Virus record (IMG/VR): IMGVR_UViG_3300005404_000032
Location: 1-24,565 of that record
Length of the DNA: 24,565 bases
From: a virus
Taxonomy: Duplodnaviria > Caudoviricetes
Reading direction: 5' to 3' (one strand)
In this document: positions 1,048-4,644 of the stretch, piece by piece
How the letters are laid out: every line of letters begins with the position of its first letter
Position numbering within the stretch: position 1 is the first letter of the stretch
The notes under the pieces: generated by a model
What the model saw: only the letters and a program-made list of their open reading frames with translations
Database searches by the model: none
What the model was told of the DNA's origin: nothing
Position numbers and translations under genes: made by a program

Positions 1048-1192
1048 ATCATTCACTAAGATAGATAAGAAAGGTCGAGAAGAAACGTGGAGTTGGGAAG
1101 AGACTCCCGAAGTACTAGCCGCACTGGAGGCACTCAATGAAAGTTCCAAACTGGCAGCATCATTCAAAGAAAGAAAAGAAACGCCACCTTAA
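1037..1192 (+). CDS. Small hypothetical protein (51 aa, MTVKSFTKIDKKGREETWSWEETPEVLAALEALNESSKLAASFKERKETPP), absent from the ORF track
   Basis: Translated by hand. GGAGGA RBS at 1023-1028, ATG 1037, TAA 1190-1192. Confidence 0.65.
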   Translation: MTVKSFTKIDKKGREETWSWEETPEVLAALEALNESSKLAASFKERKETPP

Positions 1193-1307
1193 ACCACAGG
1201 CACTGCGTCAAGCGAGAGCAAGACGTAGACAGTTGATAAAGTGTCTACTTAACCCTCCCAAGCGGAGGGTTTCTTCGTATAATAAGGACATAAGAAACAA
1301 ACACCCA
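1137..1307 (+). CDS. Highly basic 57-codon leader ORF (MKVPNWQHHSKKEKKRHLKPQALRQARARRRQ...), in frame with the VWA gene with no intervening stop
   Basis: GGAGG RBS at 1126-1130, ATG 1137. K/R-rich. The frame runs through a hairpin and a promoter into ATG 1308. Confidence 0.55.
1225..1283 (+). promoter_or_regulatory. Early-type promoter cassette, copy 1: palindrome GTAGACAGTT-GATA-AAGTGTCTAC, hairpin, TATAAT
   Basis: Inverted repeat 1225-1248 (9/10 match) and TATAAT at 1278-1283. Same spacing and downstream sequence as the copy at 3465-3523. Confidence 0.75.
1251..1276 (+). terminator. Intrinsic terminator-like hairpin AACCCTCC-CAAGC-GGAGGGTT followed by TCTTC
   Basis: Perfect 8-bp GC-rich stem and a pyrimidine-rich but imperfect U tail. 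Confidence 0.55.
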
Positions 1308-3476
1308 ATGCCAGATTCATCACATTACGAAGTTAAAGGTAACCTTGCTAGACTACTAGCTACTGAAAACCTTATTGTCCAACACAAGACTGTGGACACA
1401 GCATCGTTCGATGTGCAGAAGAGAATCTTGACACTTCCTATCTGGAAAGGACTAACAAATACAATCTATGATCTTCTTGTAGGACACGAAGTAGGACACG
1501 CATTATACACACCTAATGTAGACCTTAGTTCAACTGGTGTACCACAAGGATACTTAAACATCACAGAGGACGTACGTATTGAGAAGTTAATGAAGCGTAA
1601 GTTTCCTGGTTTACGTAAGTCTTTCTTTGAAGGTTATAAGCAATTAAATGATCAAGACTTCTTTAGTGTTTGGGAGAAAGATCTTGAAGAGTTTACTATG
1701 GCAGATAGAGTGAATCTTCATTTCAAGATTGGAAACTATGTTGACATTCCTTTCAATGAAGTTGAGCAAGCAATCGTAGATCAGATAGCACAAGTAGAAA
1801 CTTTTGAGGATGCTATAGAGGCAGCAAGAGTGCTCTGGAACTACAGAAAGGATGTAGAGCAACAAGCAGAGACCCAACAGATGCCACAAGCGAACACAGA
1901 CGGTGTTAGTGATAGTTCTCAACCTGGTAGTGACTGGGGTGAAGGAGATGATGGTGAAGAGAGTGATGAAGAAGGAGATGATGGTTTTAAAACTAGGTCT
2001 GAGGATGGTGAAGGTAGTGGTGATGATACTGATGGTGGTACAGGATTTGATGAGGGTGATGGAGACGCACCTAAGGATCTCAGCACTGTTGAATCACTAG
2101 AGTCTAAGTTGAGAGATCTAACTTCAACTAACACTTATGAGGAACTTGATGTTATTGAAATCAAACCAAGTAAGTATGAGAAGATTGTTGTTTCTAACAA
2201 AGTCTTTATGGACAGATGTGCAGAGCATTATGCTTCTCTGACTGAGAAAAACGAGGAGTATGGATTTGATCCTGTAGGGGTTGCCGACCAAGAGTTCGAC
2301 AAGTATCGTAAGGAAGCAGCAAGAGAAGTTAGCTACCTTGTTAAAGAGTTTGAGTGTAAGAAATCTGCTGCTGCTTATGCACGTGCATCTACTGCAAAGA
2401 CTGGTGTTTTGAACACTTCTATGCTACATACTTACAAGTACAATGAAGATCTATTCAAGAGAGTAACAATTATACCTGATGGTAAGAACCACGGTCTAAT
2501 TGCACTTGTTGACTGGTCAGGATCTATTGGTGAAGTATGCTTTAATATGGTAAAGCAACTTCTAAATATTGCGTGGTTCTGTAAGAAAGCACAGATTCCA
2601 TTCAATGCATACCTATTCACTACCGAGTGGCCATCCGATGAAAGACCCGACAGATCCACCCCTTACAAATATTCCTTTGGAGATCACTTTAATCTTATTA
2701 ATGTGCTTACCACCGACACTACTGGCAATGAGTTTGAACAACAGTTAAAGTATATGTTCCGTTTGGGTGCATACTACTCTAGCTACTGCCACGGTGAAGT
2801 GTTCCAATACTCACGTTGTCTTAGTTATCCAATTGGTTTATACTTAGGTGGTACACCACTTTCGGATGCTATCGTATCAATGCATACTGTCATCCCTTAC
2901 TTCAAGAAGAAGTATGGTGTTGAAAAATTAAATGTTATCGTATTATCTGATGGAGAATCCCACGCAGGAGTCTACACGACTGACAAAGAACATTACAGGG
3001 ATGAAGAACTTCTTACACGAACAGTGGAGCATCGTACTGCTCTTAGGAATAATCGTACGGGGCGTGTTTTTAGTCGTTTTTCAAATAATTATATGGAGAA
3101 TCTTGGTATCCTTGTACGAGATCTTAAAGAGTCGTTTCCTGAATCCAACTTTGTTAGTTTCAGACTTATCGAATCTAGGGATGTTGCTTACTGGCTTCGT
3201 AATGCATCTTACTTATGCACCGACTGGATGGAGCGTGGAATTTCCAGAGATGAAATTAAAGCAAAACTTAGAAGAGACAAGTCCTTAATCGTTAAGAAGT
3301 CTCTTGGCTATGATGAGTTGTACCTAATGCCAAACAAAAACTTAGGACTCAATACTGAGTTTGAAGTTGATGAAGGAGCATCTAAAGCAAAGATCAAAGC
3401 TGCTTTCAAGAAGTCTCTTGGTAACAAGAGTGTCAACAAAAAGATCCTATCATCTTTTGTAGATATGGTCAGTTGA
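1308..3476 (+). CDS. HExxH metallopeptidase-like + VWA (MIDAS) protein, CobT-like partner of the MoxR ATPase
   Basis: HEVGH near the N-terminus, D/E/G-rich linker, MIDAS elements DWSGS, GGTPL and LSDGES. The probable start is ATG 1308, just downstream of TATAAT 1278. Confidence 0.85.
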   Translation: MPDSSHYEVKGNLARLLATENLIVQHKTVDTASFDVQKRILTLPIWKGLTNTIYDLLVGHEVGHALYTPNVDLSSTGVPQGYLNITEDVRIEKLMKRKFPGLRKSFFEGYKQLNDQDFFSVWEKDLEEFTMADRVNLHFKIGNYVDIPFNEVEQAIVDQIAQVETFEDAIEAARVLWNYRKDVEQQAETQQMPQANTDGVSDSSQPGSDWGEGDDGEESDEEGDDGFKTRSEDGEGSGDDTDGGTGFDEGDGDAPKDLSTVESLESKLRDLTSTNTYEELDVIEIKPSKYEKIVVSNKVFMDRCAEHYASLTEKNEEYGFDPVGVADQEFDKYRKEAAREVSYLVKEFECKKSAAAYARASTAKTGVLNTSMLHTYKYNEDLFKRVTIIPDGKNHGLIALVDWSGSIGEVCFNMVKQLLNIAWFCKKAQIPFNAYLFTTEWPSDERPDRSTPYKYSFGDHFNLINVLTTDTTGNEFEQQLKYMFRLGAYYSSYCHGEVFQYSRCLSYPIGLYLGGTPLSDAIVSMHTVIPYFKKKYGVEKLNVIVLSDGESHAGVYTTDKEHYRDEELLTRTVEHRTALRNNRTGRVFSRFSNNYMENLGILVRDLKESFPESNFVSFRLIESRDVAYWLRNASYLCTDWMERGISRDEIKAKLRRDKSLIVKKSLGYDELYLMPNKNLGLNTEFEVDEGASKAKIKAAFKKSLGNKSVNKKILSSFVDMVS

Positions 3477-3523
3477 CAAACTGGTACACTGGGGGTTCCC
3501 ACCCCCAATTCTTGTACTATAAT
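3465..3523 (+). promoter_or_regulatory. Early-type promoter cassette, copy 2: CAGTT-GACA-AACTG palindrome, TGGGGG/CCCCCA hairpin, TATAAT
   Basis: Palindrome 3470-3483, hairpin 3490-3507, TATAAT 3518-3523. CAGTT-to-TATAAT offset is 48 nt, as in copy 1. Confidence 0.75.
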
Positions 3524-3558: not shown

Positions 3559-4644
3559 ATGACCGTAGTTTCCGATCTCCGTGACCAGTATGGTAATCAA
3601 ATTACCGCTACTGAAGTTAAAAAATATGCTAGAAAGATTGGACTTGGTTATCGTGCAATCACTAACAGACTAAGTGCTTACAAAGTAAAGCGTGGTACTT
3701 GGGATCTAACAGTGAAGGAAGCACTAGAGAAGACCTACAGCAAACCAGCAGCAGCACCTGCTGTAGAGCAGAACTTAGTTCCAGATGTAGATGCTAACTT
3801 TGTCCCTTTCGGCAATTTCAATCGTCTTAAGAAGATCCTTAAATCTGGTATCTTCTATCCCACATTCATCACTGGTCTATCAGGTAATGGTAAGACCTTC
3901 GGTGTAGAACAAGCAGCAGCACAACTCAAGCGTGACTTGATTAGAGTTAACATTACGATAGAGACAGATGAAGACGATCTTATTGGTGGGTTTCGCCTTG
4001 TTAATGGCGAAACGGTATGGCACAACGGTCCAGTCATCGAAGCACTCGAAAAAGGAGCAGTCCTACTTTTGGATGAAGTGGACCTTGCATCTAATAAGAT
4101 ACTTTGCCTTCAGTCCATCCTCGAAGGGAAGGGAGTCTTCCTCAAGAAGATAGGTAAGTACATTCAACCTGCTGATGGATTCACAGTTATAGCTACTGCT
4201 AACACTAAGGGTAAAGGATCTGAGGATGGTAGATTCATTGGTACTAACGTATTGAATGAAGCATTCCTTGAGAGATTCGCTTTGACCTTTGAGCAAGAGT
4301 ATCCTTCAGTTCAGATAGAGCAGAAGATCCTTAACAAGGTATGTAAGGATGCTGACTACTGTAAGAAACTTGCTGACTGGGCAGACATCATTCGTAAGAC
4401 ATTCTACGATGGTGGTATCGATGAGGTGATCAGTACACGTAGACTTGTACACATCACTAAGGCATTCTCTATCTTTGGTGATCGTCTAGAAGCAGTACAA
4501 CTTTGCTTGAACCGTTTCGATGATGAGACCAAGCAAGCATTCTTAGACCTTTACAGTAAGGTTGATGACAAGGTTGACCTTCCTGTAGACGAGGGAGAAT
4601 CACCTGTGGAAGTACATTCAGACAAAGTGGTTGCAATTAGGTAA
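3559..4644 (+). CDS. cobS: MoxR-family AAA+ ATPase (cyanophage 'CobS')
   Basis: Walker A GLSGNGKT, Walker B LLLDE, sensor ATAN, NEAFLERF and STRRL. Lies directly after the VWA gene. Confidence 0.9.
   Translation: MTVVSDLRDQYGNQITATEVKKYARKIGLGYRAITNRLSAYKVKRGTWDLTVKEALEKTYSKPAAAPAVEQNLVPDVDANFVPFGNFNRLKKILKSGIFYPTFITGLSGNGKTFGVEQAAAQLKRDLIRVNITIETDEDDLIGGFRLVNGETVWHNGPVIEALEKGAVLLLDEVDLASNKILCLQSILEGKGVFLKKIGKYIQPADGFTVIATANTKGKGSEDGRFIGTNVLNEAFLERFALTFEQEYPSVQIEQKILNKVCKDADYCKKLADWADIIRKTFYDGGIDEVISTRRLVHITKAFSIFGDRLEAVQLCLNRFDDETKQAFLDLYSKVDDKVDLPVDEGESPVEVHSDKVVAIR

Follow-up and report, generated by a model that had tools for sequence, protein, structure and literature searches.

Why should a small, conserved phage gene lack a stop codon of its own? 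The question is raised by a 24,565-nucleotide stretch of DNA (IMG/VR record IMGVR_UViG_3300005404_000032; hereafter the window), a 24.6-kb fragment of a T4-like cyanophage close to MED4-213 and P-HM1. A preliminary description of this DNA had pointed to a K/R-rich open reading frame (ORF) with a ribosome-binding site, GGAGG (1126-1130), and a start at ATG 1137, which crosses a putative terminator and enters the downstream gene for a metallopeptidase-vWA protein. We find that all of its coordinates are correct. The frame from 1137 has no stop until 3476; it passes a hairpin at 1251-1271 (8 bp including two A-T pairs, 5-nt loop), a T-rich tail at 1270-1277 and a TATAAT box at 1278-1283, and it is the frame of the peptidase start at ATG 1308. 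A transcript with its end at 1276-1278 would contain 46-47 codons, as expected for the peptide of about 46 amino acids (aa) first suggested. The open frame 1137-3476 is a real genotype. An assembly error was considered and ruled out, as four further contigs (L009, L010, L012 and L011) share the frame, with 171-174 of 174 nt identical.

To avoid a bias toward matches that run through the hairpin, we picked homologous loci from IMG/VR by an N-terminal motif alone; the resulting locus counts (209, 107 and 316) are samples among the matches listed. A hairpin was scored if it reached -7 kcal/mol or lower, was accompanied by at least 4 T in 8 and started at nt 84-134, and terminators behind ordinary stops were left uncounted. 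The first sample comprised 240 loci, or 209 after removal of 13 short and 18 duplicate ones. In 150 of these 209, hairpin and T-tract lie in frame and the first stop falls at +8 or later after the stem. The rest comprise 2 loci with a stop in the hairpin or tail, 3 that run into tRNA genes, 9 that stop shortly ahead of a tRNA gene and 45 without a hairpin by our script, 4 of which are near misses by eye. A second sample from another branch of the family (120 loci; 107 after removal of 7 short and 6 duplicate ones) gave 68 loci that are stop-less through the hairpin, 2 that overlap it and 37 without one. Pooled, 218 of 316 distinct loci are stop-less through the hairpin by script (215 without the doubtful L117, L524 and L548), and three loci (L525, L631 and L633) have no stop within their available stretch. 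The preliminary description had staked the non-stop layout on homologues not stopping ahead of the hairpin, and the layout survives this test, since against the 218 stop-less loci only 4 (L228, L236, L581 and L599) have a stop inside the hairpin or tail. The smallest distance from stem to stop, +8, is at the edge of a terminated transcript. As judged from these loci, the stop-less layout of the peptide gene is conserved.

Different devices appear to lead to the same outcome. The hairpin starts at nt ~115 in loci with the peptidase promoter and at nt ~101-108 in those with a late promoter, L212 has a separate one with its own promoter and its own internal terminator, and 12 of the 209 loci lie at or in tRNA genes. 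In L119 and L138 (tRNA-Leu) and in L315 (tRNA-Ile) the ORF enters the tRNA gene and stops inside it, and 5' processing of the tRNA would give a non-stop mRNA. In S-RSM4 (L006:1201-1411) the stop codon is the three bases directly ahead of tRNA-Leu; processing there would leave an mRNA with its end exactly at the stop. The predicted truncated length (44-47 aa) matches that of the stop-bearing forms (38-46 aa), and the tail added on read-through would vary in most phages, at 10-45 residues.

We next asked how well the hairpin qualifies as a terminator. Folding of region 1220-1290 of the window predicts two hairpins (1225-1248 and 1251-1271), with -24.1 kcal/mol and z = -4.5; none of 200 shuffles did as well. 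The second has the G+C-rich stem, short loop, U-tract and covariation of an intrinsic terminator, with a tail of 5 T in 8. A simple consensus scan missed it for this tail and also missed the promoter at 1278, which has no -35 box; the hairpin occupies the -35 position. The first, an imperfect palindrome that the preliminary description had overlooked, encodes the helix end of the peptide and appears to serve also as the upstream part of a promoter-type element. Across 42 distinct hairpins in the register of the window, which were chosen for having a hairpin and are mutually related, 96% of cells pair and 70 both-side changes are seen, compared to at most 77% and 28 in shuffles and at most 65% and 4 in slid registers. 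In general, the hairpins of the peptide loci resemble the other terminators of these genomes. Their position does not: in four phage records, scanned on both strands with our own gene caller (211 genes versus 241 annotated features in P-HM1), we find 98 terminator-like hairpins, of which 43 lie within 100 nt after a called stop, 2 overlap the stop, 12 are well inside genes, 41 are not close to any called gene on their strand and none has a stop 8-130 nt behind it. Among the 43, two are loci of the peptide family itself (gene uncalled) and a third is within a gene whose start was set wrongly, so that 40-41 remain. Uncalled short ORFs were looked for at 14 places, and those that are plausible genes have their stop 0-15 nt into the hairpin. 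The window holds an internal control at 3470-3523, where the stop of the upstream gene lies 14 nt ahead of a similar hairpin. Taken on these features, transcripts from upstream probably terminate at about 1276-1278, ahead of any stop codon. Assembled contigs from 4 of 24 listed RNA runs cover the gene and that of one relative spans the hairpin, though such contigs show neither transcript ends nor level.

The -10 box at 1278-1283 (TA..T nearly invariant across 30 aligned loci) is likely the early promoter of the peptidase-vWA gene. In Table S2 of PMC5082946, the P-HM2 orthologue of the peptide gene (PHM2_134) shows middle expression in both light and dark and gp46 shows middle/late expression, while the peptidase gene (PHM2_135) and cobS are early in light and middle in dark. 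Because PHM2_135 is early while gp46 and the peptide gene are middle in light, a separate peptidase promoter, and with it the short form of the protein proposed in the preliminary description, is supported. PHM2_134 as annotated overlaps the 5' end of the peptidase gene, which may blur its expression profile.

The ORF at 1137 is a real stand-alone gene with a basic core of about 38 aa. It belongs to PHROG 3309 (T4-like GC 527/587 in P-HM1/P-HM2), matched at E 6.1e-12 by residues 1-37 on profile positions 1-38 of 42, and 25 of 25 distant members scanned match the same family, whose function is unassigned. By tblastn its first 44 codons show 100% identity with Prochlorococcus phage MED4-213 and 98% with P-HM1, and the gene is found in 157 phage records, once in each and nearly all named cyanophages; these include GenBank/RefSeq duplicates and many S-RIM2 strains. 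Over three patterns we estimate 2,400 IMG/VR stretches with the gene, and a full profile search gave 167 representatives, of which the 150 listed are 33-212 aa long. The gene is often unannotated, for example in MED4-213, P-RSM6, S-RSM4 and P-SSM4. The conserved core (1137-1250; 38 codons, 13 K/R, 1 D/E) carries the motif PNWQHHSKK in its extended N-terminal half. Outside the motif used for selection, K15, R16, L18, K19, P20, Q21 and R24 are retained in 190-201 of the 205 sequences. Compared pair by pair, the sequences differ at the first/second/third codon positions by 0.34/0.23/0.60 in codons 13-30, 0.27/0.26/0.48 in codons 31-38 and 0.51/0.45/0.55 in codons 39-46; because the third-position bias fades in the last interval, we infer that protein-level selection ends at about residue 38. 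An AlphaFold2 model (pLDDT 84) predicts an extended stretch (residues 1-19) and a helix (20-37), with no strand in the free peptide. Searches of Pfam, NCBIfam, PDB sequences and Foldseek with the peptide gave nothing significant, ESM Atlas gave only unnamed clusters, and the only trace of a ribosomal protein in the libraries was bS21 (E 0.39, 1 of 30 members). We accordingly give no weight to possible resemblances to the ribosomal proteins eL29, bL32 and bS21/bS22, to ArfB/SmpB tails or to twin-arginine signals. Our literature searches returned no description of the peptide family, of its stop-less layout or of any cyanophage rescue factor.

To find cellular relatives, we ran a profile of phage sequences only (A5) over 301 cyanobacterial genomes. 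It found a 44-codon ORF in two of them, with modest per-genome E-values (4.6e-4 and 5.6e-4), and the ORF is present on eight Synechocystis plasmid records including pSYSA of PCC 6803. The pSYSA copy (L637:4501-4641) has the CRISPR3 array on one side and a DUF6717 gene on the other, with genes for an AAA_33 kinase and AlkB after that; its position, 46 aa, 9 Lys and 8 Gln identify it as Ssr70935 (SGL_RS19390). Ssr70935 is reported to be translated (ribosome profiling and western blot), and its homologues are called CRISPR-adjacent (10.64898/2025.12.20.695498). Like the phage peptide, Ssr70935 is short and very basic, with the same register of start, Trp-Gln and C-terminal helix. It differs in being a plasmid gene, the first of an operon behind CRISPR3, with an ordinary stop, no T-tract and neither His8 nor Ser10. 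The hhalign probability of the relation is 94%, tests with composition-preserving shuffles gave 0 of 3000 for the cellular relative L431 and 4 and 73 of 3000 for the relative L640, and the top Atlas clusters of the two proteins are of the same sizes. We therefore regard Ssr70935 as a likely distant homologue of the cyanophage peptide, and put it no higher in view of the modest per-genome E-values and the lack of His8 and Ser10. Other copies are located after WYL and HD genes, and a more distant one lies ahead of ARPP-1 and AAA_33 genes; all have ordinary stops. The location of such genes (L637, L431, L432 and L640) before AAA_33 kinase operons with DUF6717, AlkB, HD, WYL or ARPP-1 suggests an RNA/nucleotide-repair island. 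With a wider profile, relatives are found in only 3 of 401 cyanobacterial genomes, on plasmids or islands only. As for a chromosomal host homologue, profile A2 over the 401 genomes returned a phage contig in a single-cell genome plus noise (29 weak loci read), and seven GTDB matches proved to be five phage-like contigs and two spurious frames. One Prochlorococcus single-cell genome that is a GTDB species representative contains a 189-kb cyanophage-like contig (L209; G006 contig 3) with gp46, the peptide gene and the peptidase gene.

The known small basic proteins built in this way are ArfA and BrfA (PMC6881298, PMC8012679). BrfA (YqkK of Bacillus subtilis) is described as having an internal terminator, SsrA-dependent repression, a short strand that recruits RF2 and, like ArfA, a Lys-His tail (PMC6881298); the ArfA mRNA is shortened by stem-loop termination or RNase III cleavage, ArfT is about 40 residues long, and more small factors, unrelated to these, are to be expected (PMC8012679). 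Our peptide resembles BrfA in being small and basic, with a predicted intrinsic terminator in the coding region, the stop behind it and a variable, dispensable tail; it resembles ArfA in the predicted non-stop mRNA, and ArfT by its described size only. Of the BrfA features only the first, the internal terminator, is matched, and this at the level of sequence, in the window and the 218 loci and not in the ~85 loci with ordinary stops. BrfA is ~62 aa long with N-terminal helices, a strand for RF2 and the Lys-His tail, whereas the window peptide has ~38 aa with an extended N-terminal half and a C-terminal helix; the peptide is moreover phage-encoded, and a quarter of its homologues have an ordinary stop. 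The Lys/Gly-rich linker of one sub-branch recalls the Lys-Gly run of the two ArfA loci we obtained (both partial), but it is in a different place and is missing from the main branch. ArfA (PF03889) gave no match for 30 plus 25 members or for the window peptide at E up to 1-10, nor did ArfA PDB chains at E up to 10. For BrfA there was no NCBIfam, Pfam or PDB-sequence match, and no direct pairwise comparison was made. The absence of similarity to ArfA and BrfA remarked on in the preliminary description is thus borne out by the Pfam, NCBIfam and PDB-sequence searches. Table 1 of PMC11633108 lists, for 162 cyanobacterial genomes, smpB in 161, ssrA in 155, arfB in 90, arfA in 0 and rqcH in 161. Given smpB and ssrA, a gate would have a host system to act through, though the host itself has ample back-ups. 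No gene for transfer-messenger RNA (tmRNA) is present in the four phage genomes that we scanned.

By analogy with these factors, we tentatively propose that the peptide is a tmRNA-gated, ribosome-binding factor of the rescue type. Middle-phase transcription from the gp47-gp46 side would reach the hairpin and likely end near 1276-1278. Ribosomes that start at 1137 would stall after 46-47 codons and be rescued by tmRNA-SmpB, and the tagged peptide would be degraded. Should truncated mRNAs overwhelm trans-translation, the peptide would be set free without a tag and accumulate, which would happen only at overload during infection. The released peptide, with its basic extended motif and helix, would likely bind rRNA or ribosomes as a back-up factor; recruitment of a release factor would be an analogy rather than a result. 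The peptidase would be made separately from the promoter at 1278, and in lineages that have an ordinary stop the same peptide would be produced ungated. The parts of this proposal differ in strength: we judge selection for tmRNA gating to be an even call, and an activity of the ribosome-rescue type to be a possibility that falls short of even. The location of the likely cellular relatives ahead of PNK-like kinase, AlkB, HD and ARPP-1 genes, and that of the 12 phage loci at or in tRNA genes, is in keeping with such a role.

A number of observations weigh against the proposal. About 85 of the 316 loci end at an ordinary stop and lack the hairpin; these occupy more than 10 gene contexts, more than the stop-less ones; the gate, if real, is therefore optional for the family. 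Ordinary stops dominate the Lys/Gly-linker sub-branch, and Ssr70935 has one as well. The stop-less counts are not independent because most descend from one position after gp46 and before the peptidase gene: in the first sample 120 of 209 loci precede the peptidase gene and 20 precede one other gene with a late promoter, both groups mostly after gp46, and their hairpins may share one origin. The frame control, which spans 9 nt ahead of the hairpin to +7, favours the proposal in that stops occur in the two other frames of 42 and 41 out of 135 distinct regions, but the count of zero in the peptide frame follows from how the class was defined (only 2 hairpin loci of the sample were excluded for that). 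The gene control has one exception, a 43-codon ORF that lacks a ribosome-binding site and reads across a hairpin. Conservation of the hairpin also has a second possible cause, its use as the terminator of the upstream operon overlapping a promoter; its tail in most copies has only 4-6 T in 8, and ribosomes can suppress terminators inside ORFs (PMC7858274). Our searches showed no similarity to ArfA, to BrfA or to a solved structure. The Lys-His tail, which contacts 16S U534 (PMC6881298), is not an invariant feature of the family (His37 in 61 of 205 sequences, Leu in 127), and the free-peptide model has no RF2-type strand, residues 1-19 being extended. Host genomes have other back-ups, with ArfB-sized factors in ~28 of 41 and RqcH in 161 of 162. 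Lastly, the gene end tolerates other arrangements. Nine loci without a hairpin overlap other regulatory DNA, the ORF ending inside a site that resembles an NtcA box (L151, L154, L163, L181, L240, L248, L283, L313 and L319), and in Syn9 gp5 (L007:1201-1533), L202, L524 and L548 the basic core is fused to a hydrophobic, signal-peptide-like stretch. The same fusion is seen in the tblastn matches of S-RIM2 and S-RIM8; these ORFs have 110-120 aa, and some records call them cAMP phosphodiesterase precursor. Downstream of the nine NtcA-box-like sites lies a small conserved gene with paired cysteines.

Could the open frame instead serve to make a longer peptidase? The preliminary description had suggested an N-terminally extended vWA protein, and in the window, in the four near-identical contigs and in a fusion from another lineage (P0173) the frame is indeed open. 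As a conserved product this extended protein is not supported, whereas the non-stop layout and the internal promoter are. At 171 distinct loci with a peptidase start downstream, 14 are in frame and 117 + 40 are out of frame, and there is no intact fusion, only the frameshift-damaged copy L631 reading through. The closest cultured relatives, MED4-213, P-HM1 and P-HM2 (peptides 84-100% identical), stop at codons 48, 50 and 66. Further fusions are limited to the in-frame case of P0173 and a deletion-fusion (L117), as chance predicts. The fusion in the window strain is thus likely strain-specific and incidental, and a functional 779-aa peptidase-vWA protein with a basic extension is highly improbable, being largely refuted already by this lack of conservation. 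In another reading, ribosomes translating the ORF could melt the hairpin so that the middle transcript continues downstream, the peptide itself mattering little. The hairpin lies 100-115 nt into the ORF, where coupling begins to lower termination (PMC7858274), and PHM2_135 shifts from early to middle in the dark. Such an attenuator is nevertheless very unlikely, as the protein core is strongly conserved also where there is no hairpin, and the downstream gene varies and has its own promoter.

A more serious alternative, which we consider possible if somewhat unlikely, is a neutral overlap: the peptide would be made constitutively and bind nucleic acid or ribosomes, its C-terminal tail being free, while the hairpin would serve the promoter/terminator junction and be leaky or overridden by ribosomes, and the next stop would be used. 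Tails of the ORF of any length and any sequence, the ordinary stops in many contexts, the weak T-tracts and the descent of most stop-less loci from one ancestral position all fit this explanation, as do gene ends overlapping NtcA-like boxes and downstream starts and the element at 3470-3523, which works without the peptide. It does not account as easily for several hairpin types and two tRNA run-ins with the same outcome, when these hairpins are like other terminators, other genes overlapping such hairpins keep their stop inside the transcript and the other frames often hold stops. Alternatively, the gate could be real and the released product a RNA- or DNA-binding factor of phage-host conflict or RNA repair, made available when trans-translation is saturated. 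The likely homology to the translated, very basic and CRISPR-adjacent Ssr70935, the AAA_33 kinase genes behind its cellular relatives and the lack of ArfA/BrfA hallmarks point in this direction. No activity is on record for Ssr70935, its relatives are confined to those 3 genomes, it lacks the invariant His8 and Ser10, and tmRNA gating best suits a factor that restores translation; we consider this explanation unlikely. Our proposal remains that of a rescue-type factor behind a gate. In its boldest form, T4-like cyanophages would own a family of rescue factors, unrelated to ArfA, BrfA and ArfT, which is switched on by saturation of trans-translation via a non-stop mRNA that arises at a terminator or through the processing of a tRNA, and Ssr70935 would be kept for the same purpose on cyanobacterial defence plasmids, next to type III CRISPR and RNA-repair-type genes. 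We offer this wider form as speculation and think it doubtful.

This gene is common across a major group of aquatic viruses, yet often unannotated. If the gate is real, a phage would be reading the load on host ribosome rescue and answering with its own factor, in a phylum from which no ArfA is known. Phage-borne ribosome rescue has been proposed for the peptidyl-tRNA hydrolases that jumbo phages encode, in passages that mention neither ArfA nor tmRNA (PMC7824862). The link to Ssr70935 provides a relative that is already tagged and validated, in a cyanobacterium amenable to genetics, and the stop-less and stop-bearing alleles found in nature can serve directly as controls.

The gene order of the window is gp46 (end at 841), ORFs 841-1047 and 1037-1192, the peptide gene, the peptidase-vWA gene and a CobS/MoxR-type ATPase gene. 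The small ORF 1037-1192 (PHROG 558/13910) overlaps the peptide gene by 56 nt and provides its GGAGG, 6 nt 5' of ATG 1137; this site is kept in some relatives (P-HM1, P-HM2 and MED4-213) and missing in many others, and the genes 5' of the peptide gene are highly variable among relatives. The peptidase-vWA gene (1308-3476, plus strand; 722 aa) matches the profile of PHROG 459 and is in frame with ATG 1137 in the window strain; the annotations of P-HM1 and P-HM2 start it at the ATG equivalent to 1308. The gene at 3559-4644 (plus strand; PHROG 249, Pfam AAA_5), labelled cobS/porphyrin biosynthesis, encodes a MoxR-type AAA+ ATPase paired with the vWA protein. Such a pair is described in PMC7824862, and its early expression in P-HM2 sits oddly with the role in virion assembly proposed there.

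A second palindrome, hairpin, T-tract and TATAAT element, overlooked in the preliminary description, is found at 3470-3523 on the plus strand. Similar palindromes precede hairpin and -10 elements in four phage genomes, where we find a palindrome, G+C hairpin, T-tract and -10 box without a -35 box at G001 37141 (minus strand), G002 136264, G003 47375, 49958 and 127338, and G004 74686 and 166706. This combination is probably an early-gene element of T4-like cyanophages. The early genes of Syn9 are said, in work by Doron in 2016, to be controlled by a novel element. Many other terminators of these phage genomes have TTGACA in the loop, so that terminator and promoter are superimposed.

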